In this document: piece by piece, positions 20,106 to 44,227 of the stretch
How positions within the stretch are numbered: the stretch's first letter is position 1
Layout of the letters: the number at the start of each line of letters is the position of its first letter
Source of the DNA: Parcubacteria group bacterium Gr01-1014_31
Lineage (GTDB): Bacteria; Patescibacteriota; Patescibacteriia; Buchananbacterales; GWA2-38-13
Direction: 5' to 3'
Length of the DNA stretch: 64,000 nucleotides
NCBI GenBank assembly: GCA_007376135.1
Contig: VMFR01000001.1
Span: 206,554-270,553, forward strand
Notes under the pieces: generated by a model
What the model was told of the DNA's origin: nothing
Seen by the model: the letters and a program-made list of their open reading frames with translations, nothing else
Database searches by the model: none
Position numbers and translations under genes: made by a program

Positions 20106-22766
20106 ATGCGAACCAGCCCCGCCTTCCCGCAAAAACCGGCCCGCGTCGCGATTAAAACCGCGCACCGGGTAGCGGTCGCGTCGCTGCTCATCACCGGGTC
20201 GACGGCTATCGCGCTTGCGTTCGGTACGTCGGCGACCCTGTTGGGTTTTGCGCTCTTCCCGCCGTTGCAGGTGCAAATGCAGGGCGTCGTACTACAGGCA
20301 GCAAACCGGCCCTTTATCCAACCCGCCATTCCCGATGCCTGGCGGCCATACATCGCCGAGAGATCCCTCAATAACTTGACTTTGCGCTTGTACGCCGGCA
20401 TCACCACACTGGGCATCCATATTTCCAGCAACACGAACCTGGCGACTGGACTGAACCGCCCGGTGTACTACCGCGAGAAGGGTGCGCTGCAATGGCTTCC
20501 GGCACACCCCTTGACGGGCCGCATCACCAAATCGCTTCCGCAGGAGGACGGTTCCTACGAGTACGAACCCTTGGAGCTGTACGTTACCTCGCTGTTCTGG
20601 CTCAAACCGGGAATTGTCTACGAGGTTTGCCTGTTGATTTCCGGCGCAACATGCGACGCCGACGGCAATCTGAAAGTCTCCCTGGCGACCCGGCAGGCAA
20701 CGAATTCGCCTACGCCGGAGGCGTTCTTTACCCCCACCCGCACGGTCATCGTGGACCCGGACCCGGCGAAGGGCGACTTTACTGCCATTCAGGCGGCAGT
20801 GAACGATTCCGCGACCGCACCGGGTACGCGCATCCAGATCAACGCCGGCGTCTACCACGAAGCGGTGACGATAAAATCCGACCGGTCCGGTGCCCCTGGC
20901 CGCTGGCTCCAGTTGTACGGCATGCCCGGCGCAGTTTTGGACGGTTCCTATGCCGCTTCGGAGCTTTTTACGCCCGGCTCCGCCTGGGAAAAGGTGACCC
21001 CGCCGAATGCCGTGAACGGCGACCACATCTACAAACGTCCGGTTCGCGATGACGTGCTGATCGGCTGGCTGGGCGACGAACAACTGCTGCGCCACCGCGA
21101 TTCCGACCGCGGCAGCGGCTGGAAGAATTTTGTCGATGCCAACGCGGGAGAATTCCGCGACGGCTGCGATGAACCGAAGTTCCTTGTCCGACGCAGCTGG
21201 TACATGGACGAGGCCAACGACCTTATCTACCTCCGCTGGGACAGCGCCGTTGACCCCGCCGGCCTGGACCTGACATTCTCTCGCTACCCCATGGGCATCA
21301 TGCTGGACGGCGCCGACTGGGTGTGGGTGGAGGGGCTGCAGATCAGCCGCTTCGGCAATGGCCCCCGCACCGGTGCAGTCTACATCCAGAACGGTGAGTT
21401 CAACATCGTGCGCCGCAATGCCATTCTGCGCAATGCCGACGGCATTAGCGTCATCTGGCGCGAGAGGGGCGAAAATTGCCAAACCGCGCTCTGCAGCGGC
21501 GACGACGGCTCGTCATTCAACCGCGTCGAGGACAATACCATCGATAACGGCATTCCCGACGCCACGCTTTCTTACTGCCACACCAAGCGCTCCGCCCCAT
21601 TCTTCGGCATTCGCCTGGGCGGCAGCCTAGGCAACTCGGCTTCCGGCAATTCCCTCACCCGCATCGGCGAGAACAGCATCCAGATCACGCTCGCCGGAGA
21701 CATGGCGAAAGCGACACGCTGCAACGACGAGGAATCCTGCCGGGATCTTTTCCCGTACGTGCTCTGGGAGACCGACGTGTACGACAACACCATCTTTACC
21801 AACGTGGAGGGGCTGGAACCGGACGGCGCCCAGGTCAACGGCCGCCTGTTTCACAACCGCCTCCGCAACGTGGAGAAATATCTTGTCTCCCTGCAGGCCT
21901 CGCAGTACGGACCGACGTTCGTCGTGCGCAATATCCTGACGCGCAGCGAACCCTCCGAACTGCTGCTGACGGAAACGACCAAGAACCGCTATCCGTACCT
22001 GCACCGCTACACCTACATCTACCACAACAATCTCTGGCTGGACTACCACAGCCGACCACTCTCGACCAAAATGTATTTCAAGGAATTTCACCTGCGCTAC
22101 CGCAACAATGTCTTTCGCAACAGCAGCGGCTCGGTCGCCTCGTTTGACAACCGCCTGGATGCCGACGAGGAGGAGTACGCTGGCAACGCCGACCTGGATT
22201 ACAACGCATACAGCTCCGGCGAGGGCAGTCCCATCGTCAACTGGGTGACTGAGAGCGGCTGGGACGACATCCGCACCAGCAGCCGGCTTTGCTCCGAACA
22301 CGGGCTGGAATGCCACGGCATCGGCGGCGGCGGATTTTGGCCCGACGGGTTGTCCGCTCCGGCCGAGGAGGATTTCACACCCCTGTCGAACGGCAAATAC
22401 TTGGATGCCGGCGAGGTCATTCCCGGCATCAATCTGCCCTACTACGGCAAGAAGCCCGACATCGGCGCGGAGGAGCTGGCGATGTTCAAACGCGGCGACT
22501 CGAACGGCGACGGCAAGATGGATATCGGCGACAGCATTTTTACGCTCAACCATTTGTTCATTGGCGGCCGACAGCCTGGTTGTCTGGACGCCGCCGACTA
22601 CACCGATGACGGCAAGGTGAATCTTGCCGACGCGGTCGCCAATATCAACTACCTATTCCTCGGCAGCGAGGTTCCGCCGAGCGAGCCCGCCTCCGCCTGC
22701 GGCTACGACCCCACCCCCGACACTCTCCGTTGCGCGGAATTCCTCCCGTGCGCGAAGTGGGAATAA
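20106..22766 (+). CDS. Secreted right-handed parallel beta-helix protein (pectate-lyase/NosD-like fold) with C-terminal type-I dockerin domain
   Basis: Beta-helix repeats across residues ~230-650. The C-terminus has two Ca-loop/helix dockerin repeats (GDSNGDGKMDIGDSIFTLNHLF ... DYTDDGKVNLADAVANINYLF). Confidence 0.7.
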   Translation: MRTSPAFPQKPARVAIKTAHRVAVASLLITGSTAIALAFGTSATLLGFALFPPLQVQMQGVVLQAANRPFIQPAIPDAWRPYIAERSLNNLTLRLYAGITTLGIHISSNTNLATGLNRPVYYREKGALQWLPAHPLTGRITKSLPQEDGSYEYEPLELYVTSLFWLKPGIVYEVCLLISGATCDADGNLKVSLATRQATNSPTPEAFFTPTRTVIVDPDPAKGDFTAIQAAVNDSATAPGTRIQINAGVYHEAVTIKSDRSGAPGRWLQLYGMPGAVLDGSYAASELFTPGSAWEKVTPPNAVNGDHIYKRPVRDDVLIGWLGDEQLLRHRDSDRGSGWKNFVDANAGEFRDGCDEPKFLVRRSWYMDEANDLIYLRWDSAVDPAGLDLTFSRYPMGIMLDGADWVWVEGLQISRFGNGPRTGAVYIQNGEFNIVRRNAILRNADGISVIWRERGENCQTALCSGDDGSSFNRVEDNTIDNGIPDATLSYCHTKRSAPFFGIRLGGSLGNSASGNSLTRIGENSIQITLAGDMAKATRCNDEESCRDLFPYVLWETDVYDNTIFTNVEGLEPDGAQVNGRLFHNRLRNVEKYLVSLQASQYGPTFVVRNILTRSEPSELLLTETTKNRYPYLHRYTYIYHNNLWLDYHSRPLSTKMYFKEFHLRYRNNVFRNSSGSVASFDNRLDADEEEYAGNADLDYNAYSSGEGSPIVNWVTESGWDDIRTSSRLCSEHGLECHGIGGGGFWPDGLSAPAEEDFTPLSNGKYLDAGEVIPGINLPYYGKKPDIGAEELAMFKRGDSNGDGKMDIGDSIFTLNHLFIGGRQPGCLDAADYTDDGKVNLADAVANINYLFLGSEVPPSEPASACGYDPTPDTLRCAEFLPCAKWE

Positions 22767-24804: not shown

Positions 24805-26637
24805 TTACGGCAGGGTCGGCAACGGCATATTCAGGTCAGGGCACTCCAGCAGGTTTATCCAACGCTTGGTGGTCTTGTAGACGTACCCGGTCGGGGTCTG
24901 CGCGTTGGGCAAGCCGTACGGCACCCATGGCAGCAGCACCTGCTCCCAGTACTTTTTCTGGAATTCCATCACCGCGTCGCGGGTCGCCTTATCGTAGACG
25001 CCCGTCACGGCGAGGCTCAGCCCGAGGTTCTTGTTCAGGAACTCCTGCAGTTTCTTCACTTCCTCCGGGTCGTTCTTGGCCCCGTACTTGATGAATTTTT
25101 TCAGGTACTCGGTGCTGCATACGAACGGGGTTTCCTCAGTGCTGACACCCAAGACCCGCGGCTGCGGGACGCTGCCCGCCGGAACGCCAGTGGGCACTCC
25201 TGGACCGCGACCCGGCGGGCCGTTGGCGCCGCCCCTTGGCGTCGGAGTCGGCGTGGGTGAGCTGCCACCACCGCCGGGGGTTGGCGTTGGGGTGGGCGTG
25301 GGTTCAGGTGTTGGCGTGGGTGTCGGGGTCGGGCCAGGACCGTCGCCGTTGTCTTCATTATCGTCGTCCGTGCCTGTGCAACCCGGGTCATCCATATCCA
25401 CGAGTTCGTCGTCGTCATTGTCAACGCCGTCGGAACATTCCGTGGTCGGAGTCGGCGTGGGGGTTGGCGTTGGGGTGGGCGTCGGGTCAACCGGGTCGGT
25501 TTCGTCATCGTCCTCGTCGCTGTCGCAGCCCAGGTCGTCCAAATCCACCTCGCCGTCGTCGTCATTGTCCTCCCCATCCGAACACTGCGGTGTCGGCGTC
25601 GGACTGGGCGTCGGGGTCGGCGTGGGCGTCGGGTCAACGGGGTCGGTTTCGTCATCATCGTCCGGAGCACTGCAACCCGGGTCGTCCGAATCTATCAGCT
25701 CGTCGGCGTCGTTATCCTCTCCGTCCGAACACTGCGGTGTCGGCGTAGGCGTCGGGTCAACGAGGTCGGTTTCGTCATCATCGTCCGGGTTGGAACAACC
25801 CGGGTCCTCGGAATCTACCAACTGGTCCCCATCATTATCGGTAGTATCCGAACACTGCGGTGTCGGCGTCGGACTGGGTGTCGGGGTGGGTGTTGGGGTC
25901 GGGTCAACGGGGTCGGTTTCGTCATCATCGTCCGGAGCACTGCATCCCGGGTCCTGCTCATCCACGAGTTGGTCGCCGTCATTGTCCGTAGTGTCCGAGC
26001 ACTGCGGAGTTGGCGTTGGAGTCGGAGTTGGCGTCGGCGTGGGTGTCGGGGTGACCGGGTCCGTTTCGTCGTTGTCCTCGGCGTTGGCGCATCCCGGGTC
26101 CGCCAAATCTACTAACTGGTCGCCGTCGTTATCGGTGGTGTCGGAACACTGCGGAGACGACTCGCTGACCGTCACCTGCACGGATGCCGTTGCCTCGCCG
26201 GAGCTTTCTGCGCCCGGAGGAGTCGCGTGATACAGCTTGGCGATAATGGTATAGGTACCGCCAGCCTCGTAGTCGTGGGTATTGTGCCACGGCCCGGAAA
26301 AATTCTTCACGTTACCGTGAGACAGGTCCACGAATTCCAGCACGGACGTATCGTCCACGTTGCCGTCGCCCCAGTTCACCTGCACGTCGTGCTGCGAGAA
26401 CTGGCCGACGAACGGGACGCCGAACCCGGTGCCGTCCACCTGGACCGACAGACCGTTCACGGTCGTGCCGGTAATAGTTAGGTCATACTCTCCCCCGCCC
26501 GTGGCGGCCATGATGGCCGCGGGCGAAAATGCGGACACCACCATGGAAAAGATGGTCGCGGCGGCCACGGTCCGCAGCCCGTCCAGACGGGAGTGCACAG
26601 AGGCAAACAGCCGTTTCGCGCGGATGTTTTTCTTCAT
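24805..26637 (-). CDS. Secreted protein with six Cys-bracketed Ca-binding-like repeats (QCSDTTDNDGDQLVDxxDPGC) joined by PT linkers, a Gly/Pro-rich spacer and a C-terminal peptidoglycan-binding (PGBD1-like) domain
   Basis: ORF track. The repeats are DxDxDG-type. The C-terminus ...LQEFLNKNLGLSLAVTGVYDKATRDAVMEFQKKY... matches the PG_binding_1 pattern. Confidence 0.7.
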   Translation of the reverse strand: MKKNIRAKRLFASVHSRLDGLRTVAAATIFSMVVSAFSPAAIMAATGGGEYDLTITGTTVNGLSVQVDGTGFGVPFVGQFSQHDVQVNWGDGNVDDTSVLEFVDLSHGNVKNFSGPWHNTHDYEAGGTYTIIAKLYHATPPGAESSGEATASVQVTVSESSPQCSDTTDNDGDQLVDLADPGCANAEDNDETDPVTPTPTPTPTPTPTPTPQCSDTTDNDGDQLVDEQDPGCSAPDDDDETDPVDPTPTPTPTPSPTPTPQCSDTTDNDGDQLVDSEDPGCSNPDDDDETDLVDPTPTPTPQCSDGEDNDADELIDSDDPGCSAPDDDDETDPVDPTPTPTPTPSPTPTPQCSDGEDNDDDGEVDLDDLGCDSDEDDDETDPVDPTPTPTPTPTPTPTTECSDGVDNDDDELVDMDDPGCTGTDDDNEDNGDGPGPTPTPTPTPEPTPTPTPTPGGGGSSPTPTPTPRGGANGPPGRGPGVPTGVPAGSVPQPRVLGVSTEETPFVCSTEYLKKFIKYGAKNDPEEVKKLQEFLNKNLGLSLAVTGVYDKATRDAVMEFQKKYWEQVLLPWVPYGLPNAQTPTGYVYKTTKRWINLLECPDLNMPLPTLP

Positions 26638-26763: not shown

Positions 26764-27996
26764 CTACTCGCAAAGCTGCCCGGCAATGGTGTTGTAGATG
26801 GCGGCAAGGTCCCCGCTGGACGGGCTGAAGTAGTACTGCCCGCCGGTCATCGTTGCGATCTGCTGCAACATCGTGCTGTTGACGTTGGAGCCAAGGCCGA
26901 TAGTGAAAATGGTGGTGCTGGCGTTGGCCGCGTCCTGCGCGCGGTTGATGGCGTAGGTAACATCTGCGGCGTACTCACCGTACCCGGGGCCGAACGGCTT
27001 GTTGGCCTTGCCGTCGGTCAAAAGGATTTCCACGTGAGCTGCTGCTGGGCGCATCCGCACGGATGTAAGCTCGGTGTTCGCGGTCTTAATGGCGTCGCCA
27101 ATGTTTGTTGCGCCAACCGCCACCAGCGCGTCGATCTTGGTCTTTACCAATGGGTAGTTGTTGGTCAACGTTTGGTCCAGGGTCACGCTGGTTGCGAACG
27201 ATACCAAGGACGCCTGGTCGTTCGGAGTGAGTAGGTCCACAAAGCCCTTGGCTGCCGCCTTGGCGTCAACGAACCGCTGGCCGCTGTCAAACAGCATGGA
27301 GCCGGAGCGGTCAATGATGAGGACGACGTCCACCGGCCCGGTGCACTGCTGGGTTGTGCAGCTCGCGCTGCAGGAAGCTCCCGGCTGGCCGTTCTGCGGC
27401 CCCAGGTCGCACTCCTCGCCCGGTTCCATAATGCCGTTGCCGCAGGAGGGGTCGATGTTGACCGACAGGTCACAGCCGAATTCGCCGTTGGTGGTAACGA
27501 TGCCGCCTTTGTGGTCCTGGGCGACGCCGCCGCTGGTCGGGTCGGCGATGGCCGGCGCGTCCAAAAGCACGGTCCAGACGTCGGTCTCGTCCGTGCTTTC
27601 CGTTAAGGTCGCGTTGGCCGGCACGTCGCCTTCGCCCGTTTCGCCCGTCAGCGAGATGTACGGACACAGGTCGCGGTAGTAGCCGGGCAGCTCAGGGTCG
27701 CCGCCGTCCGGGTACTCCGGGTGCTCCGGCGGCAAGGGCTTGCGCTTCTCCTCTATCCAGTAATCCTGCGACTGGCCCAGGAATTCCGGCGCCAGGGTAA
27801 TAGTGAAGGTTTCGTCCAGCTGCTCGCCCGGGAAGACCATGCCGAAGTCCAAATGGTTGATGGATTCCAAGATGGGCAGCAAGGTGGCCGACACGCCGAT
27901 GAGCGCAGACTGGAATATCGCGAACACCAGCCCGCTCACCACGAGTGTGGCGGTTCCCTTGGCCCAGCGGCGGATGGTCATTTTGGAGGTGAACAT
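26764..27996 (-). CDS. Secreted vWA-domain protein with a Myxococcus-type Cys-rich repeat; member of the SipW-cognate-like N-terminal family
   Basis: VWA MIDAS region (VVLIIDRSGSM, ... LTDG). CGNGIMEPGEECDLGPQNGQPGASCSASC repeat. N-terminal AIFQSALIGVSATL...FGMVFPGEQLDETF parallels the paralogs at 33291 and 35135. Confidence 0.8.
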   Translation of the reverse strand: MFTSKMTIRRWAKGTATLVVSGLVFAIFQSALIGVSATLLPILESINHLDFGMVFPGEQLDETFTITLAPEFLGQSQDYWIEEKRKPLPPEHPEYPDGGDPELPGYYRDLCPYISLTGETGEGDVPANATLTESTDETDVWTVLLDAPAIADPTSGGVAQDHKGGIVTTNGEFGCDLSVNIDPSCGNGIMEPGEECDLGPQNGQPGASCSASCTTQQCTGPVDVVLIIDRSGSMLFDSGQRFVDAKAAAKGFVDLLTPNDQASLVSFATSVTLDQTLTNNYPLVKTKIDALVAVGATNIGDAIKTANTELTSVRMRPAAAHVEILLTDGKANKPFGPGYGEYAADVTYAINRAQDAANASTTIFTIGLGSNVNSTMLQQIATMTGGQYYFSPSSGDLAAIYNTIAGQLCE

Positions 27997-28005
27997 GGCG
28001 ATAGT

Positions 28006-31000
28006 CTAGCTGCCATCAACAGGCGTCGGGGTCGGCGTTGGCGACACGGTCGGCGATTCCTCGGTCACGACCGGTTCATCGGACGGCTCCGGCGGCAAAA
28101 CAGCATCGGTTTCCGGTGAAGTTGTGGCAGTATCGTCCGTCGGCGTAGGCGTCGGGGTCGGACTGGGCTCGGGCGTTGGCGATGGGGTGGGTTCCGGCGT
28201 TGGTTCCGGGGTCGGTGACGGCGATGGCGTGGGGGTCGGTTCCACGACCGGCTCCTCTACTTTGCTGACGGGAGCGACCAATTCCTCGGGGCTGGGTTCC
28301 GGCGTCGGGGTCGGCGACGGAGACGCCAGAAGCTCTTCATTCACGGGCTCGAACGCGATCGGGCTGGAGTAGTCATCCGACGGGAAGAGCGCGTCCCACT
28401 CCGCATCGGTCAGCAATGCCGCGTCCTCCACTTCCGGTTCATCCGGCAGCTCGCTGACCACGCCGACCTCCTCGGCCGGTTCGCCGTCGCAGGTTTCGCC
28501 GGTGTTGTCGTCGCCGGGCGTCGGGCACGGGTCCACCCAGTCGCCCGTGCCGTCCGGCACGCGAGCGTAGGAATTGCCCTCGCCTTTCTCACTGGTCCAA
28601 ATGAATTCGTCCAGCAGCGCGCCGTTGCCGCCGATCTCGCGGTTGTACAGCCGCACGCGGTCCCCGCTGTTGTTCAGATTGAAGTCCGAATCGCCGTTAC
28701 GGTAGACCACCATCTGCCCGCCCGCCGCAATGGTCGTGGTGCCGGTGTCCGTGTTGAAGGCGCCAATATCCAGCTCATTGCCGTTGCTGCTGTCGTACAG
28801 CATCCACCCGGCCAGGGAAATAGGCTTGCCGGAACGGTTATAGAGCTCCACCCATTCGCCATTGGGTTTGCCGGCGTCATCGGCGCCAGCGGGGTTGGGC
28901 AGCACTTCGTTCAGCACTACCTCCTGCTGCCCGGTCGGCGAGCAGCCGTCCCATGGGATGAGGTTGCCGTCGTCGCACTGTTCATCCTGTTCCAGCACGC
29001 CGTTGCCGTAGCCCGGCAGGATGCACTGGCCGGCGTTCGGATTCTCGTCCTCGTAGAAATTGTAGATACGGGCGGCGACGTACGCGGCGCGCGCCAGGTC
29101 ATCGCGGGTGGCGCTGCCGTTGGCGATGTACTGCTCCACAGCGGCGATCGCCTGCTGCACCGTCGACGTCGGGCTTAAGCCAAGAACGTCGAAGGCGGCA
29201 TTCCCGTCGTCGGAACCGCCCAAGAGCGCGTCCAGACGCAGACGGCCGGCCGAGACGTTGGCCTCATCGGCCAGGACGTGCGCCTTGGCGCGGCAGCGCT
29301 GGCCGGAAACCGTGCCGCCGCTCGGGCAGTTGCTGGTGTTCACATTGGCGCAGACTTGCGGCCCGGTGATGCCGACAAAGACATCCGAGAAACCGTCCGA
29401 CAACACGCTGACCTCGTCGGCCCAGATGCTGGACGTCGGGCAGCCGTCGTTGTTGCGGTAGTAGCCGATGGACAGGGCCGAGCACTCATTGGTCAGCGGC
29501 TCACAGGTCGTCGAGCAGTTGCTGCCCGGCTGGCCGTTCTGGGTCCCTTCGTCGCACTGTTCGGTCTGACCGAAGGAATTGGGCGTCTGTACCGTGCCGT
29601 CGCCGCACCAGTTGGTCGGCGTACAGGTGTTGTCACAGTCGTCGAAATTATTGGTGTTGCCGTCGTCGCACTGCTCCGGGGCTTCCACGGTGCCATTGCC
29701 GCACTCCGGCGCGACCGTGCAGTCGTTCCGGCAGGCGTCCTCGTCATTCGTATTGCCATCGTCGCACTGCTCCGTTTCCTGGTTGACGATGCCGTCGCCG
29801 CAGCGGACCGGGATGGGGCACAGCACCACTTCATCAACGGCGTAGCTGTCGCCGCCGCGCAACTTGAGCTGGCGGATGCCCGTCGTCTGATCGCCGGTTA
29901 TCTTTTGCACCGAGTTACCGCCCTTGGTCGGCACGGGGATGGAGAACACCTGCGCGGTGCCACTCGCGTCTGCGTACCCGACCACCTCGCCGGTGCTGTT
30001 GTCCAGGTCAATATACTTGACCGAGGAGAACGCCATCGGTTGAGCAAAGGTGAAACGGAGGGAACCGCCGGCCGGTTCGTCGTTCGGGTCATCCACGTCG
30101 CCGTCGGCGGGGGCCGTGTCCACCACGTTGTCGGGGATGATGAGGAGGTTGTGCAGCGCCGTCGCGTTGGACGGTTCCTTGCCGTCGCCGCTCTCGCTGT
30201 TGCCCGGGCCGCCGAACTGGAGGTTGGGGGTGCCCAGGTCCACGTCCACGATGCCGTCGCCGTTGACGCCGCCCGTCGGGGTGTCGGAATCAAAGGTGAT
30301 CCCCACCTGCGGATGCCCGGCGTTGTAGTTGTGCGCGGTGACGGCGATACCCCACGGCAGGTATTCGCCGTCAATGAATTGGCCGCGGCGTATCACGCCG
30401 CCGTTCGCGTCGGTGTCAAAATCCAAAGTGATGGCGTTTTCGCACACGCCGTCCTGGTAGTTGCCGAAGTCCAAGTTGGAGGCAAACTCGCCCTGCGCCA
30501 GGGTCACGTTGATGTTTACTGGCGTGCTGTGGGTCCAGCCGTCGCGGTCCTCTTCCATCACCGTGTAGCTGCCCGCGTTCAAACCGGAGAATTCATAGTA
30601 CCCGGCCGTGTCCGTCACGGCCCCGCCCACGGCATCGCCCGAAAGCGTTATCTGCCAGCCGGGAATCGCGGGTTCGCCCGCGTCCCAAACACCGTCCTTG
30701 TCCAAGTCGTTGAACTTGTGGCCGGACAGGCCGCCGCGGCGCTCTTCCTGCTTGTTGCCGAAGTCCACGACCGTTTCGCATCTGCCGAGGTACACGGCCA
30801 CGCTGTCGTCTGTGGTGGATATCCAGCCGTTCTGCGGCGCCTCGGTCACGATGTAGTCGCCGAAGTCCAGGTTCCCGAACTGGTAGTTGCCGTTCGAGTC
30901 CGTCACCTGGTTGCCGAGGTCGCGCGCCGCCAGCCAGTTCTGGAAATCGCCCAGGTCGCCGGACGGAAGCGCGAGGGAGGAGTCATTGTTGAAATCACAC

Positions 31001-31380
31001 TGCGTGCCGGCGGGACACGTTGCCCCGTCCACGATAACGTCTTCCAGCACGCCGTAGTCGTTGGAATCGTTAAATCCGTTGCCGTTGTAATCAAATTCAG
31101 CGGCATAGGGCCCGCGCTTCAGCTCAATGACCCAGTTCTCCAGGCCCGGCTCGCCCGCGTCGCGGATACCGTCGCCGTCCAGGTCGTTGAACTTGGTCCC
31201 GTGGAGCACGACCTCCTCGCACCGCGGCGTGATGCGGGCCGTGACGTTCACGACCGAAGCCTCAAAGGCCGCAATGACCGGCAGCTGGGTGAGCACCACC
31301 GCAAACGCGACCAGCGAAGCACCCACACGCTTGGTAGCGGTGAGCACGCGCTTCGTCAGTTTTTTAGTTCGTGACCTCAT
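28006..31380 (-). CDS. Giant secreted adhesin-like protein (1124 aa): SipW-cognate-like N-terminus, Cna-B/SdrD-B-like domains, four Myxococcus Cys-rich repeats, a lamin-tail domain (LTD) and a PT-rich C-terminal tail
   Basis: N-terminus ...[14 protein letters not shown]. Cna-B-like segments ([29 protein letters not shown]). [23 protein letters not shown] repeats x4. LTD segment [28 protein letters not shown]. Confidence 0.8.
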
Positions 31381-31387
31381 GGTGAGA

Positions 31388-31830
31388 ACGTATCTAGTAT
31401 CTGGTATCTCGTATTTAGGTAAAGGATTTGCACTTTTTGATCAGACCATTCAGTAACTTATGAACTTCAACGGTCAGTTTTGCGATGGTCTGGAATTTAT
31501 CGTTCGTAATATATTTAACGTCGCGCGCAACGAGTAATTGGTTCTGTAATTCCGTTACTGATCCCTCCGCGAATGAATAAAAGTGTAATTTCTCTTTCCA
31601 GGATTGGCGGCTAAAGCCTTCGGCGATATTGGAAGTGATGGATACTGCGCTCCGGCGCATCTGACTGACCAGCCCGAATGTTTCGTCTTTTGGAAACCCT
31701 TTTGTCGTCTGATAGATCTGGAGGACCAACTGATGCCCCTGCTGCCACGTTGTTAAATTCGTGAAGTTTTTAATTTTTTCCATTTTTATATTCGCTAGAT
31801 ACTAGATACTACATACTAGATACTCCGCCT
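31388..31830. mobile_element. Low-GC cassette carrying a four-helix-bundle gene, flanked by inverted arrays of heptamer repeats (GTATCTN x3.5 on the left, TAGATAC x4 on the right)
   Basis: Left gtatctagtatctggtatctcgtat (~31390..31416) and right tagatactagatactacatactagatact (~31795..31826) are reverse complements. Interior GC is about 43% against ~65% in the flanks. Confidence 0.55.
31415..31783 (-). CDS. Four-helix-bundle protein (TIGR02436 family, the type found in 23S rRNA intervening sequences and mobile DNA)
   Basis: 122 aa, [59 protein letters not shown]-rich codon usage. Confidence 0.75.
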
Positions 31831-33290: not shown

Positions 33291-34628
33291 TTACGGAACG
33301 GGCTCTGGGGTCGGCTCCGGCGTCGGCGACGGCAGCGGGTCAACCCCATTTTGGGTGAGGTTGTCGATGGCCGTCACTTCAAACCACAGGTCGCAGCCAA
33401 ACACCTCGTGCTCCAGCTCCGGAGGGAGCATGTAGTCATTCGGGTCGGCCGCTGGATTGTGGCTACGGACGAAGTCCGCCCAGTCCTGGGCGCAGGCGCC
33501 CTTGAAACAGGGCACCGGCAGGTCGATGATCCACGTGTCGCCCACGTCCGTACCCGTCTTTTTGATCTTGCCGCGGGCAACGGATGTTGCCAGCTCAGGG
33601 TCATGGAAGGCGGGCACCCCGTAGTCATTGGCCACCGGATGGTTGTCCGGCGTCTTTGACAGGTAGGGGCAGAGGGATGGATAGCACTTTTCCAAGTACG
33701 TTGTCCACACCGTATCGGACGAGTCGTACGGGGTCGTCGGAAGGTTGAGGTGGCAGTAATCGCGTGCGACCGTCACCCCAACCTCCTGCAAGAATCCGTC
33801 CCGCGGCTTGGGTTTCTGCTTGATCACGTAGTGCACCGTGGAAACGCGGGTCTGGTCGGTTTCCGAAAAGGATTCGCTGAAGGTGACAAAGGTGCCACGC
33901 TCCAGATACTCCTGCGGGAACACGGTGCCATGGTTATCCGGGTCCTGGACGTAGTCTGCCGGATCCGCGGTCGGGTTGATTCCGTGGACGTAGTCCTCCC
34001 AGTCCTGGGCGCAGAAACCGTCAAAGCACGGAACCTTCAGGTCGATCTTCCACTGGTCGCGAACGTCATCGTTTGACTTGGCCAGATAACCAATGGCCTC
34101 GAGCCAAGAAATGGACGACGTCGAAACCGTGAACGGCTGGTGGAATGCGGCGACCTCAACCTCGTTAATTTCGACACCATCTGCACCCTTGTGCTTGGAC
34201 AGGTAGGGGCAGAGTGACGGTAGTACGCCCCAGTCCGCGCCCTCGGGCATGTTTTCCGGCCGAGGACCACAATCAATACGGTAACCGCCCTGACCATCTA
34301 AAACGACATGGCCAGTGGCCGTCGGGAAGTCCAACATCACGGTTCCGCCGTCGGTGGTAACTGCGCACTTGGGCTTCTGGCGAATCATGTACTGGACATC
34401 ATCCGCGTCCTTTTCGTCCAAGAACGAGCCAGAAAGCTGAACATCAAAAACCTTGTCCAGCTGCTCCTGCGGGAATACGGTGCCGTAGCGGATTTCCTTG
34501 ATCGGTACTTCCAAGGCGTTCTCGATGCGCGCCGTCACGTTGATGACGTGTGCCTCAAAGGCGGCGAACATTGGGACCGATGCGACGGCCAATGCCAGCG
34601 CCGAGAAGCCGAACAAAACTTTCTTCAT
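33291..34628 (-). CDS. Secreted protein, SipW-cognate-like N-terminus, internally duplicated Cys-motif domain (LCPYLSK ... VPCFxGxCAQDW)
   Basis: MKKVLFGFSALALAVASVPMFAAFEAHVINVTARIENALEV... has two repeats of the LCPYLSK/VPCF(D/K)G(F/A)CAQDW(E/A)D(Y/F)V module, then a Pro-Thr tail. Confidence 0.75.
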   Translation of the reverse strand: MKKVLFGFSALALAVASVPMFAAFEAHVINVTARIENALEVPIKEIRYGTVFPQEQLDKVFDVQLSGSFLDEKDADDVQYMIRQKPKCAVTTDGGTVMLDFPTATGHVVLDGQGGYRIDCGPRPENMPEGADWGVLPSLCPYLSKHKGADGVEINEVEVAAFHQPFTVSTSSISWLEAIGYLAKSNDDVRDQWKIDLKVPCFDGFCAQDWEDYVHGINPTADPADYVQDPDNHGTVFPQEYLERGTFVTFSESFSETDQTRVSTVHYVIKQKPKPRDGFLQEVGVTVARDYCHLNLPTTPYDSSDTVWTTYLEKCYPSLCPYLSKTPDNHPVANDYGVPAFHDPELATSVARGKIKKTGTDVGDTWIIDLPVPCFKGACAQDWADFVRSHNPAADPNDYMLPPELEHEVFGCDLWFEVTAIDNLTQNGVDPLPSPTPEPTPEPVP

Positions 34629-35134: not shown

Positions 35135-36451
35135 CTACTCCGGGCAGGACGCCAGCTTCTCCAATTCGGCCTGCAGCGTCGCAAAGTCGGCGGCCGAGAA
35201 GTAGTGCGCGTCGTTGGTGGCAATGGTCTTCAGGTAGGTGGCGTCCACGTCGCCGCCGATGCCGACCACGTAGATTTCCACACCTGCCGCCTTGGCCGCG
35301 TCAGCGGCGGTCTTGGCAGCGGCCTTGTCAAGCGTCACGTCGCCGTTCGGGCGGTTCGGGTTGCCATCGGTCATGATGACCATGACGTCCGGCACTGCTG
35401 GACGCTCGTGCGGGTCGGCGCTGTCCAATTCACCGGTCGCAAGTTCAATACCTTCCTTGAGGTTGGTGAACCCGCCGTTGACCAGGGCGTCAATGGCAGC
35501 GTTGATGGTCGAGGTCGCATCGCTCAAGTGCAGGTCCAGTGTGCCCGTGTCCGAGAAACTGCTTTGCCCGACGTGGGTTCCTGCCGTGGACGGGTTGACC
35601 GCGGTTACGAAGGCCTTGGCAGCTGTCTTCAGGTCGCCTAACTCCGTGGAATCAATGCTGCCGGAGCGGTCAATGACCAGCATCATATCCAGGGTCTTGC
35701 AGCCCAAGCCTGGCAGCGAAATCCCGAACACTTCTATCCATAGGTCGCACCCAAAGATCTGGTGCTCGTTGGAACTCGGCTGGATGTATTCGGTCGGGGT
35801 CGCCGAGGGATTTGCGTCATGGACGAAATCGGCCCAATCCTGCGCGCACTGGCCCTCAAAACACGGGGTCTTGAGGTCAATGAGCCAGCGGTCGCCCGTG
35901 TCCTCCTGGGACTTGGCCAGGTGACCGGTTACCTGCGTGTCCAGCGTGGTCTGCAGCGTCCAGCCGTCAATAACGCCATGGAACGCCGGGATTCCCTGCG
36001 AGTCGTTCTCCGTCACGAGGCCATCTGGGGAAACCTCATGCTTGGACAGGTAGGGGCAAAGCAACGGCAGCGGTACATAGCCATCCGGGCAGATGAACAC
36101 GCCCGTATCCTTGTTGTGGCCGATGACCGCAGCGTAACCCTCATATTGAACCGGGTCCGTATTCGCGATCGGCAAACCACACTTGGGCTTCTGCCGGATC
36201 ATGTAGTCAATGTCATCCACGCGCCCCTCGTCGACGAACGACTGGGACAGCGCGATGCTGATGAACTTGTCCAGCTTTTCCTGCGGGAAGACCGTGCCGA
36301 ACTGGATGGGCTCGGTGTTCACCGCCAACGCGTTCTCAATTCTCGCCGTAACGTTAATGACGTGCGCTTCGAATGCCGCGAACATCGGCACCGACGCGAC
36401 CGCCAACGCCAGGGCGGAAAGAGAAAGCAACGCTTTCTTCATAGTTTGCAA
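35135..36451 (-). CDS. Secreted protein, paralog of 33291..34628 (the first 39 residues are nearly identical), carrying a C-terminal vWA domain
   Basis: MQTMKKALLSLSALALAVASVPMFAAFEAHVINVTARIENALAV... One LCPYLSK/TPCFEGQCAQDWADFV module. VWA (LDMMLVIDRSGSIDS ... MVIMTDGNPN). Confidence 0.75.
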   Translation of the reverse strand: MQTMKKALLSLSALALAVASVPMFAAFEAHVINVTARIENALAVNTEPIQFGTVFPQEKLDKFISIALSQSFVDEGRVDDIDYMIRQKPKCGLPIANTDPVQYEGYAAVIGHNKDTGVFICPDGYVPLPLLCPYLSKHEVSPDGLVTENDSQGIPAFHGVIDGWTLQTTLDTQVTGHLAKSQEDTGDRWLIDLKTPCFEGQCAQDWADFVHDANPSATPTEYIQPSSNEHQIFGCDLWIEVFGISLPGLGCKTLDMMLVIDRSGSIDSTELGDLKTAAKAFVTAVNPSTAGTHVGQSSFSDTGTLDLHLSDATSTINAAIDALVNGGFTNLKEGIELATGELDSADPHERPAVPDVMVIMTDGNPNRPNGDVTLDKAAAKTAADAAKAAGVEIYVVGIGGDVDATYLKTIATNDAHYFSAADFATLQAELEKLASCPE

Positions 36452-37384: not shown

Positions 37385-38959
37385 TTAGGTGGTATTCTTT
37401 GGCGGTGCTGGGGTGTTCACTTCGGGCGGCGCCGTGATCTCTCCGGACGGTCCGCCTTTGTTGGCCAGAGAATAGAGCATCGCTCCCGACGCCACCGCCG
37501 TCACCGCCAGCCAGTAATTCAATTCGCACGCCGGGTACCAGATGATCATCGGCACCGCCGCGGCCAGCATCATCACCACCCAGCGGCTGCCGCCGTCCTT
37601 GGAAACTTTGCGTTCCTTCATCGCCAGCATCGCGATGAGCACGGCATTGAGCGCGGCCAGTAGTCCCAGCCAGTTGGTGCAGCTGGACAGCAATCCCGGG
37701 GTCGTGGTGGCCGTACCGGTCGCCAAGGCATCCACCGGGACTACGAGCGGCTCTTCATTCTCGCCGCCAAACAGCGTGTCCGGGGCGGGAGTCGGGCTGG
37801 CTGCATCTTCGGGCGTTGCCTCCGGGGTCGGGGAATCCTGCGGGCCGCCGATGGGCGCTTCCGGCGTCGGGGTCGCGACCGGCGAGAACGATGGTTTGGG
37901 TGTCAAGGAAGGCGTCGCGGTGCCCGCCACGGCCGGCTTTGGCGCCTGCGCCGCGGGCTTGGCCGCCGGCGTCGGTTCCGGAGTGCCCGCGCCCATCACC
38001 GAGCCGCTCTGCAGCGAGAATTCCAGACGGTCGTAGGCTGCCCCTTCGCTGCCGCGGCCGTTCGATATCATAGCCGTTACATAGGTCGCAACGGTGACCG
38101 TTGACGCCACCGTTTCCGCTTTCACCGGGTACGACAGCGTGTAGCTGCCGCGGGAACCGATGGCGCCCAGGTCCCAGACGCGTTCTCGGCTGTTGTCGTC
38201 GGCAAAGACGAGACCGGACGGCAACTGCTGTGCCAGGGTCAGGTCGTAGCCGACCGAATAGCCGGTGTTGGTAATGGTCACGGTCACGTCGGTGGACTGT
38301 CCCGAACGCAGGATATCCTCATCCAGCACCGCGTTGATGGCTAGTGCCGGAAAATTGTGTTTGGGCACGACCTTCGGCGACGACAGGGGGCACAGGTAGA
38401 TGGCCGAGACGCCGCTGCCCTCGGTCAGCGCGATGTCCAGCCGGGTCGCCGCATCCAGCGTGTCCAGCGTCAGGGCGCGGATCTCGTTGGCTGTCCCGGC
38501 CGTCAGTGGAATGCCCGCCGGCATCTCGCTGTTCTGGTCGTACACCAGGATCTTGGCGCCGTCGCGGTTCGCCCCGATGAGTTCTACCACTTGCACCGAA
38601 ACGACGTTTCCGAATTCAAAACTGATGGTGCCGGCCTGGCCGTCGCCGACGCGGGCAGCCGATACCGGCCCGGTGGTGGAGGGCAACTCCGCGATGGTCG
38701 CCGTCTGGCTGCCGGAGGTATTCCACGCCGCGATGTCCACACCCCACATCCGGTACTGGTCGGTGGCGGCGTCGCCGGGTTTTAACGTGTTGCCCTCCGC
38801 GTCGGACACAAAATCCACAACCATCAAGCTGTCGCACACCGGCTCCAGGTTCGGAATGGACGTCGTGGTTTGCGCGAACGCCGAAAGAGGTGCGCTGGCA
38901 ACCAGCGCCAAAGCAAGCATCAAACTGGAAAGCGGCGCGCGCATGCGGTTGAGTTTCAT
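37385..38959 (-). CDS. Secreted DUF11-like surface protein with Ala/Pro/Thr linker and multi-TM C-terminal anchor
   Basis: Signal-like MKLNRMRAPLSSLMLALALVASAPLSAFA. DUF11-like VTVTITNTGYSVGYDLTLAQQLPSGLVF. C-terminal three hydrophobic helices. The start was chosen at an internal Met of ORF 37385..39001. Confidence 0.6.
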   Translation of the reverse strand: MKLNRMRAPLSSLMLALALVASAPLSAFAQTTTSIPNLEPVCDSLMVVDFVSDAEGNTLKPGDAATDQYRMWGVDIAAWNTSGSQTATIAELPSTTGPVSAARVGDGQAGTISFEFGNVVSVQVVELIGANRDGAKILVYDQNSEMPAGIPLTAGTANEIRALTLDTLDAATRLDIALTEGSGVSAIYLCPLSSPKVVPKHNFPALAINAVLDEDILRSGQSTDVTVTITNTGYSVGYDLTLAQQLPSGLVFADDNSRERVWDLGAIGSRGSYTLSYPVKAETVASTVTVATYVTAMISNGRGSEGAAYDRLEFSLQSGSVMGAGTPEPTPAAKPAAQAPKPAVAGTATPSLTPKPSFSPVATPTPEAPIGGPQDSPTPEATPEDAASPTPAPDTLFGGENEEPLVVPVDALATGTATTTPGLLSSCTNWLGLLAALNAVLIAMLAMKERKVSKDGGSRWVVMMLAAAVPMIIWYPACELNYWLAVTAVASGAMLYSLANKGGPSGEITAPPEVNTPAPPKNTT

Positions 38960-39706
38960 AGATCGCTGAGGCAGCAAAAAACCTGCGCCGTTACCTGGCA
39001 CAGGTTTTCATGTTTACAAATGAAGACTGCGGAAACAGCCGCCACACGGCAGCGTGCCCGCAAGCCTTGACCCCCTCCGCGCGGTTCACTTTTTTGTTCG
39101 AACCCGTACCGTGCTTCATGGTGTCGCGTTACGCGGCAAACGCCGCACGCTCTCCGCCGGAAGCAGTAAACAAAACAAAAAACCAAAAATCTTTCCCCCT
39201 CCGACTCCTGACTTTCCAGAGCTGCCACACGGCAGCGGGTACAAAGATTTTGGCCTTTTTGGATCTTTTGTCCTTGATTTTTCTTTTTGATTTCGCGTTC
39301 CTGCTCTACTCTAGCAGCGCCTCACATATACTGCAATAGATTTTATCCACAAAAATGCGGGGACTTACGCACAGGATGAAAACAAGTTGAGCGCAGGGGG
39401 AAAATCAGGTTACGACACACCACGAATGAATTGGCAAGGAGCGTCCGGCGCACTGTATATAGAGACGCTCGTATATACGTTTTTCGCTCGGCCGCAACCC
39501 GCCCCAAAACCGAACTTCGACCCTGGTTAAACGAGCTCAAAAAATCGGTTATTCTGAATTCCGGCTTCCCGCCAACAGCGGGACAGGCTGGGCCCGGAAT
39601 GACGCTGTAAACTCGTCACTGAGCACGGAGCACTGAGCACCGGGCACTAAAACCTCCTACTCCACCTTTAGCGCTTCTACCGTATACCTGTTCGATGCAT
39701 TCCACA

Positions 39707-41215: not shown

Positions 41216-44200
41216 ATGGCAAATTCCGCCTGCGGTCCGGTCAAACACCAAAAACCCATCGGCTATCAGGCCGCGGCGTTGCTTGCCCATATCAAGTCAT
41301 CAACCGCCCGAAAAGTCGCGGTTTTTTTATTGCCGCTCCTGGCTGCCAACCTGGTGTTGAGCGTGGTGCCCGTCGGACGTGTCGCAGGGGTATTAGCGTA
41401 TGAAGACGAACCGGGACCGTCCTGCGCGGCGCGTTCCGTCGGATTTTTCAAAAACAATGAGGGCTGCCCGGCCGAAAGCATTTGGGCCGATGAGGTTAGT
41501 ACGCTATCGGGCGGCTACGCGGGAGAATTTTCGGGTTTGACCGGCGCGCAATTCTGCATTGACTCCAGCATCAGCGAATGCCCTGCCGGCAACACCGTTG
41601 AAGGACAGCGTTGCCGGGCCCGCGCCCACCTGCTGGCCAATGAAGCCAACGTGGTCTCCGCCCGCCTGCAGACCGATGCCCTGCTTGCCGGCGCCGACAA
41701 CGGCGATCCGGCATTCTCCGCGCTCGGCCTTTCGTCTTCGTCCACGGTCGGCCAAGCACTCGCCATTTTGGAGCAAGCACTTGCCGACGTGAACGCCACC
41801 GCCGCCCAGCTGGAAGATATCGCCACGGTGGCGGCGCGCATCTACACGTTCTACGAAAGCGAAAATACCAGCGCCCCGGCCTGCGTCATGCCCACCCCCA
41901 CGCCGACGCCGACCCCGACGCCCACGCCAACACCGGCCTGCGTGATGGAGCTAGTGAAGACCGACTCCCCGGACCCGGTTGAGCCAGGCCAAAACATTTC
42001 CTACCACCTGCGCCTGGAAAGCACCGGCACGGGGATGTGCACCGGCGGCGGCGTGGAGCTGAAGGAGTTCTACGACAGCGCAACGACGTTCGTGTCCGCC
42101 AACCCCGCTCCGACGTCCGGCAACAACCGCTGGAACTTCGGCGAGGTGCCGCCGGGCGAGGTCAACGAGGTGGACGTTATTGTCCACGTGCCCGCGACCG
42201 CCCAGGATGGCGATATCATCACCAACCAAGCGTGCTTCTGGACGCGCGAGTATAACACCTGGACCTGCGTGACGGAACAAACGACCGTCCGCGTCCCTCC
42301 GCCGCCCACCCCAACGCCTACGCCGACACCGGAACCGACCCCGACGCCGACCCCATCGCGAGCCTACTGTGGCGACGAGGTTGTCCAAACCCCCAACAGC
42401 GACGGCCAGGCCGAGCAGTGCGACGACGGCAACCTCATCAATTTCGACGGCTGCAACGTGCACTGCCAGCTGGAGCAGTTCTCCTGTCCCGCGCCGGTCA
42501 TCATTGATTTTGACCGGGACGGCAGCGGCAGCCCGATAGCGGCCGGCCAACTCCTGGATACTGAGTACGCGACCGTTGGCGTGACCATCACGGCCGCCAA
42601 CGACAACGCCTCCCGCCCGCAGATGGCGATCACTTTTGACGGCCAGAACCCAACCGGCGGCGCCGACAGCCTGGACCACGGCACGCCAAACGTTTTCTAC
42701 GGCGGCACCGGCGTCGGTGCCGGCGGCGTACCATCCAATAATGTGCCACTTTACCTGCACCTCATTATTCCAAAGAACGTGACCGACGCGAACCACGATG
42801 GCTTGGTGGACGACCCGGACGAGGACAGCGCCGGCACTGTGACGTTCACGTTCGCCGACCCGGTGAGGCCGGAGCTCATCACCCTCATCGACATAGACCA
42901 CAACGCCGGAACCCATTCCGTCAAAGGGTACCTCGGCTCCACGCTGGTCAGCACCGTGGCTATCCCCACCTACGGCGACAACAACGTCCAATACCTCGAG
43001 TTGGACAATACCCAGGAAGTCGACCAGCTGCGAGTCCGGCTCAACGACTCCTTCGGCATTGACCACCTGGTGTTCTGCCCGCAGACGCCGCCACCCCCGA
43101 CGCCAACGCCTACTCCCACACCCACCCCGATACCCACGCCTACTCCGACGCCAACGCCCACACCGACACCAACGCCGGAGCCAACTCCCACGCCAACACC
43201 TGAACCTACCCCAACGCCGACACCGACTCCTACTCCCACACCGACCCCGACGCCAGAACCCACACCGACGCCGACCCCGGAACCCACGCCAAGCCCGACA
43301 CCTGCGCCCACGCCGACACCTACCCCGCCCCCTGGTGGCGGTGGAGGCGGGGGCGGCGGAGGGGGTGGCGGTGGCCCCATTCCCAACCCCCGGTTGAGCG
43401 TTACGAAAACCTCTCCGGTCATCACCGCCTGCGCGGGCAGCACGGTTCCCTACACCATCACGGTGCAAAACATCGGTTCCTACAGCGGATTCAACCTTGT
43501 ACTCACCGACACGCTGCCCTCCGGCTTCACGTTCGGCACCTCTACCGCCGGGTCGTTCCAGCGCAGTTTCGGCAACGTCGCGCCGCACGAAGTGAAGAGC
43601 TACTCCTACACCGCGACGGTTCCGCCGGGGACTCCGAATGGCAGCTACACGAATACCGTTGTCGCGAAGATCGACAACGGCGGCCCGGCCAACAACACGG
43701 CCAGCGCCAGTTTTATCGTGAAGGTCGCCAACGCATGCGCCGCCCCCGCCCTGGCCCTGGAAAAAACCGTCGCGCAGGACTTCGTGAACGCCGGCGGTTT
43801 GGCTGACTTCACCCTCATAGTTTCCAACGTCGGTCCCGTAACGCTGACCAACGTGACGCTCGCCGATGTTCTGCCCGACGGCTTCACCGCGTCTGACGGC
43901 ACCACTTCATGGTCGCTGAACGATCTTGCGCCCGGCGCCACGAAAACGGTTCAACTGAAAGTCAGCGTCGGCGCAAATGTTGCTCCCGGCACCTATCCCA
44001 ACGTCGCGAAAGCCAAGGCCGACAACCACGCCGAAGTCGTGGACTCGGTCAGTGTGGAGGTCCGCGCGGGCCAGGTCCTGGGCACGGCTTTTGAAGAGCT
44101 GCCCGACACCGGCTCCGGGTTCACGATGCTGGCGTACTTCATCGTCAACCTCATGGCATTAGCCGCCGGTGTCGCGCTCTACCGCTGGACCAACCGCTAC

Positions 44201-44227
44201 GCCCGCCAGTACCAGCTGTGGGCATAA
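41216..44227 (+). CDS. LPxTG-anchored cell-surface protein (1003 aa): Myxococcus Cys-rich repeat, three PT linkers, a 14-Gly run, DUF11 repeats, and a C-terminal LPDTG + TM + basic-tail sorting signal
   Basis: ...[44 protein letters not shown] at the C-terminus. [37 protein letters not shown]11-like [13 protein letters not shown] and [13 protein letters not shown]. Confidence 0.8.

Follow-up and report, generated by a model that had tools for sequence, protein, structure and literature searches.

A modular, acidic secreted protein in the variable cargo slot of a conserved Patescibacteria operon, and its candidate attachment to a TasA-like fibre

How might a large modular surface protein be held at the cell when its C-terminus carries no anchor signal? 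The question is posed by a 64,000-nucleotide stretch of contig VMFR01000001.1 (positions 206,554 to 270,553, forward strand; hereafter the window) from Parcubacteria group bacterium Gr01-1014_31, an ultra-small groundwater bacterium. The open reading frame (ORF) at window positions 28006..31380 (minus strand; ATG at 31380, stop at 28006-28008) encodes a protein of 1124 amino acids (aa), here called the target, which is identical to TSC77039.1, a metagenome-assembled genome (MAG) entry on the 539-kb contig of this organism named 'MAG: hypothetical protein G01um101431_222'. Beyond a few cultured Saccharibacteria, how most ultra-small bacteria of the candidate phyla radiation (CPR)/Patescibacteria attach to hosts or surfaces is unknown. 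We found that the target occupies the variable cargo slot of an operon that is conserved in Patescibacteria and also encodes TasA-like secreted proteins and a signal peptidase, and that it is a secreted, disulfide-rich and very acidic modular protein (28 Cys; 184 Asp/Glu against 53 Lys/Arg, a large net negative charge). Its attachment is probably N-terminal and not via a C-terminal anchor, as suggested by a strand that it has in common with its TasA-like neighbours and by the co-encoded endoplasmic reticulum (ER)-type peptidase.

The target and its operon slot

The target had initially been annotated as a giant adhesin of rarely combined domains, with the reservation that it might be a fusion artefact of a frameshifted assembly. 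Sixteen homologues align colinearly with it at 40-77% identity, the orthologues at 56-75%, and SdrD_B, the lamin-tail domain (LTD) and DUF4215 are present in all of them. Because these homologues are full length, colinear and from independent assemblies, a fusion or frameshift artefact is excluded and the ORF is real; 'giant', at 1124 aa, was an overstatement. The target itself is not a new kind of object, since its Pfam-recognised domains are known and its homologues already go under the names 'SdrD B-like' and 'lamin tail domain-containing'.

Upstream of the target, on the same strand, lie genes for two TasA-like secreted proteins (435 and 445 aa), a small conserved protein of 170 aa and an ER/archaeal-type signal peptidase I. 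The order of TasA-like gene(s), small protein, peptidase and target homologue is retained in all five homologue loci examined. With the TasA-like family we fetched 74 distinct loci from one-genome-per-species GTDB contigs, covering Giovannoni-, Azam-, Ryan-, Wildermuth-, Vogel-, Taylor-, Uhr-, Portnoy-, Doudna- and Harrisonbacteria, Paceibacteria and others. A peptidase homologue lies within 60 of the 74 loci, the 14 peptidase-less loci being mostly short contigs (median 5.4 kb vs 16 kb), and a homologue of the 170-aa protein is found in 62. Three loci (L015, L065, L075) are recorded as 'uncultured Gammaproteobacteria' despite their Patescibacteria-type cluster, probably through mis-binning.

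Searching these loci for the N-terminal strand motif described below gave 220 ORFs, typically two to four per locus. At 49 of the 62 peptidase-bearing loci examined, a strand-bearing ORF lies on the same strand no more than 700 bp downstream of the peptidase gene, and all 49 of these cargo-slot ORFs lack the TasA-like continuation 'IENAL'. The encoded proteins range from 236 to 1133 aa. Hidden Markov models built from the target's domains detected two previously unannotated domains, here named X and Y, in 8 and 20 of the 49, respectively, the LTD in 20 and the split first SdrD_B domain in 8; all four modules occur together only in the target's own lineage. Common forms consist of the strand with Y (~340-380 aa), the strand with X and Y (~540-580 aa), or the strand followed by other modules and an LTD (650-880 aa), and the simplest cargo proteins have the strand, Y and a tail only. 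By Pfam, other cargo proteins combine the LTD with CBM_4_9, or with DUF642, DUF4215, DUF11 and SdrD_B. A strongly acidic tail is present in 46 of 48 cargo proteins, and a C-terminal hydrophobic segment or LPXTG motif in none of the 48. The supposedly rare combination is therefore not exceptional, LTD, SdrD_B, X, Y and Cys-rich repeats being recurring blocks of the same operon slot across Patescibacteria. What stands of the initial annotation as a whole is a secreted, multi-domain, adhesin-like protein without a C-terminal anchor; the rarity of the combination does not, and neither does the assignment of Cna_B proper.

The N-terminal strand and a candidate mode of attachment

Hydropathy places the sole hydrophobic stretch of the target at residues 19-45, and, together with an hhalign comparison with Bacillus subtilis TasA, it points to cleavage at ...VIA|AFEAS. 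The conserved strand that would then open the mature chain is identical at 11 of 13 residues to AFEAHVINVTARI of the 445-aa and 435-aa neighbours; both of these upstream ORFs (33291..34628; 35135..36442) read ...VPMFAAFEAHVINVTARIENAL after a hydrophobic segment, as the target does, while other secreted proteins of the window have ordinary signal peptides without the motif. Across 209 strand-bearing ORFs (71 of the cargo class and 138 of the TasA-like class, from ~77 loci), positions +1 to +11 are 73-100% conserved except +7, a range shaped in part by the search expression, which fixes the permitted residues at 9 of the 11 motif positions. Positions that the expression leaves unrestricted, +5 His and, just past the motif, +13 Ile, are conserved too. 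In both classes the best-conserved positions are +1 to +11/+13 of the predicted mature chain, the signal peptide and -3 to -1 being far less conserved; in the cargo proteins conservation collapses past +13. Within the strand, N-V-T is near-invariant (~209 ORFs, loci L003-L079) and constitutes an N-X-T glycosylation sequon.

Such a strand could serve as a recognition or export tag for the peptidase and no more, the protein then being released, or loosely held by Ca2+ or charge, as a soluble lectin or matrix protein. The peptidase is indeed tightly linked to the tagged genes, neither the target nor the cargo proteins have a C-terminal anchor of any kind, and docking of the strand in a fibre is itself a proposal. 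Type I signal peptidases, however, recognise mainly the -3 and -1 positions; conservation here is only moderate in the signal peptide and at -3 to -1, whereas +1 to +13 are near-invariant in two unrelated protein classes. The strand-bearing neighbours, moreover, are predicted to have a fibre-subunit-like fold. We consider a tag without docking unlikely.

The neighbour family has at least 1509 members or hits, all in Patescibacteria-type MAGs, with no Pfam model and no annotation save that of the VWA fusion. For the 435-aa neighbour, AlphaFold2 modelled the first 241 residues with a mean predicted local distance difference test (pLDDT) score of 86.8, and no segment of three or more residues falls below 50 other than the near-invariant strand (residues 23-35). 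The best Foldseek match of this model in the PDB is the cryo-electron microscopy structure of the TasA fibre (8aur_A; E 0.015, probability 0.94, template-modelling (TM) score 0.37-0.39), followed by the donor-strand fibre subunits of cannulae, AggA, FimA and CsuE. Aligned with B. subtilis TasA (query sequence 100% identical to 8aur_A) by hhalign, the family gives a local match with E 0.0015 and a probability of only 17%, in which the signal peptides are paired, then FAAFE of the neighbour with WAAFND of TasA, then VINVTARIENALSV with TLDLSAK-ENSASV, and finally FPQEKLDKF with KPGDKLTKDF. The NCBIfam model 'biofilm matrix protein TasA' (NF046066) matches one of 39 family members weakly (E 0.064). 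Three individually weak signals thus agree on one family, and we regard the TasA likeness of the neighbours as probable, not established.

The same alignment bears on another possibility, that the hydrophobic N-terminus stays uncleaved as a signal anchor in the cytoplasmic membrane with the motif as a juxtamembrane element. Residues 19-45 could span a membrane and the C-terminus is free; against this stand the small residues at -3 and -1 (V-I-A|A), the conservation of a signal peptidase beside these genes and the placement by hhalign of the site opposite the TasA cleavage site. A signal anchor therefore seems improbable.

The mature TasA chain starts at A28 (AFNDIK...), and its residues 28-38 are the donor strand that completes the next subunit (PMC9674648, PMC10151520). 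TapA, a different protein encoded in the same operon and also processed by SipW, has a look-alike N-terminus that complements TasA (PMC9674648, PMC10151520). Archaeal homologues of TasA are treated in bioRxiv 10.1101/2022.04.22.489182. By analogy, the target would be a lectin-like adhesin, carried as tip or cargo by a TasA-like fibre to which it docks with an N-terminal donor strand of the TapA type, a reading for which we judge the balance to be about even. After Sec export, the operon peptidase would cut at ...VIA|AFEAS, and the strand thus exposed would complete a TasA-like subunit by entering the open groove in its beta-sheet, in the way that the TapA N-terminus complements TasA. The two SdrD_B domains, of Ca-binding type, would form a stalk; a binding head would be made up of X with its jelly roll, the Cys knots, Y with its helices and the immunoglobulin (Ig)-like LTD, its ligands probably being glycans on the surface of a host or partner cell; and the polyanionic C-terminal tail would remain free. 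With its strand in the groove of a subunit, the target would sit at the groove end of the fibre, attached through its N-terminus, so that a C-terminal anchor would be unnecessary. An N-terminal strand tether would also explain why the strand is absent from the LPXTG-bearing paralogue described below, and would account for large surface proteins that have no C-terminal anchor.

Several points weigh against this reading, besides the dependence of the motif statistics on the search expression. The TasA link is weak, with no Foldseek match at E<=1e-3, TM scores of 0.37-0.39 and the low hhalign probability, and the profile of the neighbour family matched neither PDB sequences nor Pfam, including PF12389 at E<=10. 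The low pLDDT of the strand may be merely disorder. Strand insertion is argued from analogy and the cleavage site is a prediction, and the label 'dedicated' for the peptidase reflects synteny, a second enzyme of LepB type elsewhere in the genome being possible. A SipW-cognate signal-peptide model (which we take to be TIGR04088) found no match at E<=10 in the N-termini of the target and its neighbours or in 39 members of the neighbour family; of the 'SipW-cognate-like N-terminus' noted initially, what holds is the gene context, an adjoining SipW-class peptidase. For the proposed head, no sugar-binding residues were identified in X, and the most conserved loop of X (residues ~367-398) is poorly modelled.

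A broader proposal, which we put forward tentatively and with some doubt, is that Patescibacteria widely encode an unrecognised donor-strand fibre made of TasA-like subunits (often VWA-fused), a small membrane protein, a dedicated ER-type peptidase and an exchangeable, strand-plugged cargo adhesin as cap, with the target as the most elaborate cargo, a host-glycan-binding tip for episymbiotic attachment. A compact, lineage-spanning operon with a peptidase, TasA-like subunits and a swappable strand-tagged binder is in any case a concrete candidate for an attachment apparatus, and the analysis also defines a secreted family of at least 1509 hits that databases call 'hypothetical', together with two widespread extracellular domains, X and Y, that had no annotation.

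Domains of the target and their possible functions

Table 1. Features of the target, of its operon and of a shuffled paralogue (window coordinates)
Feature	Position	Strand	Description
Signal peptide	31270..31380	-	Residues 1-37: basic n-region, then hydrophobic 19-37; predicted cleavage ...PVIA|AFEAS
Conserved N-terminal strand	31231..31269	-	Residues 38-50 of the predicted mature protein; proposed donor strand/docking tag
SdrD_B domain 1	30736..31221	-	Residues 54-215; 40.4 bits in two stretches on the isolated piece
SdrD_B domain 2	30460..30735	-	Residues 216-307; best stretch 223-286; SpaA and CarboxypepD_reg overlap
Domain X	29803..30459	-	Residues 308-526, bounded by C313 and C521; predicted beta jelly roll, galactose-binding-like/carbohydrate-binding module (CBM)-like
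Three canonical Cys-rich acidic repeats (TIGR02232/DUF4215)	29497..29802	-	Residues 527-628
Domain Y	29014..29496	-	Residues 629-789; predicted helical, six Cys, opens with a 'GY(Y/W)(R/K)N' motif
Fourth, degenerate Cys-rich repeat	28936..29013	-	Residues 790-815; best TIGR02232 stretch 792-820
Lamin-tail domain (Ig-like)	28501..28935	-	Residues 816-960, conserved ending included
Acidic Pro/Thr/Ser-rich low-complexity tail	28009..28500	-	Residues 961-1124; no anchor signal
410-aa protein	26764..27996	-	Starts 9 bp downstream of the target: diverged strand AIFQSALIGVSATL, short TasA-like body, weak Cys repeat, VWA
Four-helix-bundle '23S rRNA intervening sequence' protein	31415-31783	-	Weak Avd-like matches; between peptidase and target
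ER/archaeal-type signal peptidase I (SipW-like), 187 aa	31832..32395	-	N-terminal transmembrane helix; SGSMWP, HR and GDANNVDD motifs
Small conserved protein, 170 aa	32516..33028	-	Transmembrane helix and probable beta-sandwich; weak ASH/PapD-like match, E 0.0017
TasA-like secreted protein, 445 aa	33291..34628	-	Two tandem bodies; N-terminus ...VPMFA|AFEAHVINVTARIENAL
TasA-like body with C-terminal VWA, 435 aa from ATG	35135..36442	-	VWA 99.4 bits; same N-terminal strand
Shuffled paralogue, 1003 aa	41216..44227	+	Y, DUF11-like domain, Cys repeat, X, two DUF11 domains

The modules of the target are set out in Table 1. Pfam searches of the whole protein matched SdrD_B (PF17210; 71.3 bits vs a cut-off of 29.7, in two stretches), LTD (PF00932; 67.9 bits vs 34.3, residues 816-926) and DUF4215 (48.2 bits vs 27, in three stretches), and an NCBIfam search matched TIGR02232 (76.6 bits vs 20.8). 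The LTD had been called from the sequence initially and is borne out, being matched also in all 16 orthologues. The SdrD-B/Cna-B-like sandwiches of the same annotation are SdrD_B domains, the Cna_B family itself (PF05738) having no match at E<=0.1 in the target or its 16 orthologues; the only prealbumin-type families that match are SdrD_B, SpaA and CarboxypepD_reg, which we take to be Cna_B-related prealbumin-like folds.

SdrD_B domain 1 is probably clamped by C54-C201 and contains, at residues ~90-158 (window 30907..31113), an insertion of ~70 aa that divides it in two and had been overlooked. The insertion carries two DxNxD-type loops and a CPxGxxC motif, and Dockerin_1 (PF00404) matches at this place in 3 of the 16 orthologues (best E 1.7e-6); the target's own insertion has no dockerin match at E<=5. 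SdrD_B domain 2 occurs in some orthologues only, with a Cys repeat in its place in P0006-P0011. Of the four Cys-rich repeats first counted, three are canonical four-Cys units, which a regular expression locates at residues 527-554, 560-586 and 592-626, and the fourth (792-813; regular-expression core 792-805) is a degenerate copy with just two Cys, its first Cys being replaced by Tyr.

Domains X and Y account for ~380 residues that had previously been without annotation and were missed initially. Domain X matches no Pfam or NCBIfam model, and no CBM family by sequence; at E<=1e-3 it is nevertheless found in at least 1206 representative clusters, in proteins of 183 to 6892 aa where it co-occurs with DUF4215, LTD or a type IX secretion system (T9SS) tail. 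An AlphaFold2 model of residues 305-800 gives X as a confident beta-sandwich (core pLDDT 85-92). Foldseek found 13 PDB matches of this X-plus-Y model at E<=1e-3 (probability ~1.0, target-normalised TM score 0.3-0.5), and the folds matched by X include the CBM32 of AlyQ, discoidin II, CBM6, CBM29, the lectin domain of lectinolysin, APC10/DOC, the Eph ligand-binding domain and SUN. The modelled structure of X is thus a jelly roll of CBM32/CBM6/discoidin type, and X may be a glycan-binding head. For domain Y, AlphaFold2 predicts seven helices (pLDDT 57-89); its profile has no relatives in the PDB, Pfam or NCBIfam, and the fold search of the X-plus-Y model returned matches of X type only.

These modules could instead belong to an extracellular enzyme, for example one that degrades polysaccharide or DNA, with X and the LTD binding substrate and Y or another region catalytic. 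In bacteria the LTD is often found alongside extracellular hydrolases, the nuclease ExeM among them (PMC6085458), CBM-like folds mostly occur together with glycoside hydrolases, and Y has no known function. Searches of Pfam, NCBIfam and the PDB, on the other hand, matched no catalytic family anywhere in the target (phmmer of the whole protein against the PDB gave only one spurious low-complexity match), Y is predicted to be a small disulfide-rich helical bundle, and the simplest cargo has nothing besides the strand, Y and a tail. An enzymatic role is thus quite improbable, and adhesion, judged from the sequence, is the function we favour.

The anchorless tail rich in Pro, Thr, Glu and Ser that had been noted at the C-terminus is confirmed by composition, the last 125 aa being 30% P, 17% T, 14% E and 13% S. 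It has no LPXTG motif, no PEP-CTERM-type signal and no hydrophobic segment (the highest 19-mer hydropathy within the last 200 aa is 0.34). In the alignment of the target family the variability of the tail is interrupted near its start by a conserved motif, DAAxxTxxxW (window 28392-28439, minus strand; residues ~981-996). The SdrD_B domains, and the presence in this organism of at least one protein with an LPXTG-type ending, might suggest a sortase-anchored wall adhesin of the type of microbial surface components recognizing adhesive matrix molecules (MSCRAMM). That idea is refuted by the absence of LPXTG and of a C-terminal transmembrane segment, and the SdrC model NF000535 scores 24.5 bits vs 1700; the assembly artefact is refuted by the colinear full-length orthologues already described, and both we hold to be highly improbable.

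Related systems and neighbouring genes

The operon is similar to tapA-sipW-tasA of B. subtilis in encoding an ER/archaeal-type signal peptidase, secreted putative beta-sandwich subunits that start with AF... right past the predicted cleavage site and a second, unrelated protein with the same strand; a subunit, furthermore, has the TasA fibre as its best PDB fold match. It differs in the absence of a family-level match (PF12389; the SipW-cognate model; NF046066 just as described for the one of 39 members), in its several paralogous subunits, often VWA-fused, and in its Parcubacterium host. The strand-bearing partner of TasA, TapA, is a protein of 253 aa, whereas here it is a multi-domain lectin-like protein of 1124 aa, the docking of which is proposed. 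A system that would work like tapA-sipW-tasA but fails the TasA and SipW-cognate sequence tests is therefore not a member of those families.

Jelly-roll or beta-sandwich subunits joined by an N-terminal donor strand are found also in two kinds of fibre that assemble without an usher, the archaeal bundling pili (ABP) and the Pyrodictium cannulae (CanA), and a cannula subunit is among the fold matches of the neighbour protein. The ABP donor strand bears an N-X-S/T sequon, as the target strand does (NVT), and in the archaeal bundling pilin this strand is N-glycosylated. No sequence relationship to ABP or cannulae was seen here, and ABP operons have no dedicated peptidase; to our knowledge, no large strand-tagged cargo proteins have been described for either. 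The staphylococcal SdrC/D/E proteins have SdrD_B-type B-repeat beta-sandwiches as the target does, probably forming a rigid Ca-dependent stalk, but the target is without their ligand-binding A region, Ser-Asp repeats and LPXTG. With ExeM of Shewanella and the TIGR02232/DUF4215 proteins of Myxococcus the target has Pfam/NCBIfam domains in common, there too in extracellular proteins; in ExeM the LTD is joined to nuclease domains, of which the target has none, and we know of no link between TIGR02232/DUF4215 repeat proteins and a signal-peptidase operon. In the literature searched there was no description of this operon pattern in CPR bacteria, of a strand common to TasA-like subunits and exchangeable cargo, or of domains X and Y.

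The peptidase itself matches TIGR02228 (88.1 bits vs 51.85) and carries the NCBI name 'signal peptidase, endoplasmic reticulum-type', but scores only 45.6 bits vs 190 with the Bacillus SipW equivalog model. The 445-aa neighbour looks, from its sequence, like a covalently fused pair of fibre subunits. In the linker between its two bodies, VHGINPTADP, the N-terminal strand AHVINVTARI recurs as a decayed copy. For the 170-aa protein hhalign detected no homology to the TasA-like family, so that a role as anchor or assembly factor is only speculation. The four-helix-bundle gene is an insertion found only in this lineage and its closest relative (L004/L006). Its Avd-like matches raised the idea of a diversity-generating retroelement, which was rejected: the scanned ORFs include no reverse transcriptase, and no template/variable repeat pair was seen nearby.

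The paralogue at 41216..44227 carries the modules of the target in a different order. Its domain Y (residues 70-225) is 56% identical to that of the target (E 4e-51, hhalign probability 100%) and its domain X 42% identical (E 2e-36). Its N-terminus is ordinary and without the conserved strand; it has DUF11 in place of SdrD_B and LTD, and, where the target has an acidic free tail, it ends in LPDTGSG, a hydrophobic stretch and the basic tail RWTNRYARQ, which read as an LPXTG-type sorting signal. No sortase gene was seen among the window ORFs scanned. The same binding modules thus sit on an LPXTG paralogue and on the anchorless target, so the organism uses them on two kinds of protein. The Cys-rich repeat had been proposed to link the target with two further proteins; this applies to 41216..44227 (TIGR02232, 34.4 bits), to which X and Y indicate a much stronger kinship than was seen initially, while 26764..27996 stays just below the 20.8-bit cut-off at 18.9 bits. 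Other features of the paralogue are its very long Pro-Thr linkers and 14 consecutive Gly residues.

The window, with a G+C content of ~60%, otherwise encodes common housekeeping functions (LepA, MurJ, acetate kinase, iPGM, DnaX, tRNA-Gln). Downstream of the 410-aa protein gene, positions 24805-26637 (minus strand) encode a 610-aa protein with six acidic double-disulfide repeats (NF033662), Pro-Thr linkers between them and a C-terminal peptidoglycan-binding domain, which may be a wall-bound partner of the cluster. After this gene, at 24628-24599, lies a strong terminator-like hairpin, the sole strong one in a promoter/terminator scan whose counts were no higher than in shuffled sequences. A secreted 886-aa protein (20106-22766, plus strand) ends in a type I dockerin barely above the cut-off (23.0 vs 22.9 bits), and the insertion in SdrD_B domain 1 of the target has no similarity to it. 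Another secreted protein, of 538 aa (37385-39001, minus strand), has a diverged X-like N-domain, DUF11, a Pro-rich region and hydrophobic, probably membrane-spanning C-terminal segments. Finally, short intergenic repeats between or beside the surface-protein genes (24296-24350/35009-35063, 95% identical; 24424-24471/41046-41093, 92%; 34943-35011/36693-36761, 77%), at least one pair of them with an internal palindrome, have the look of repetitive extragenic palindromic (REP) or miniature inverted-repeat transposable element (MITE) sequences.

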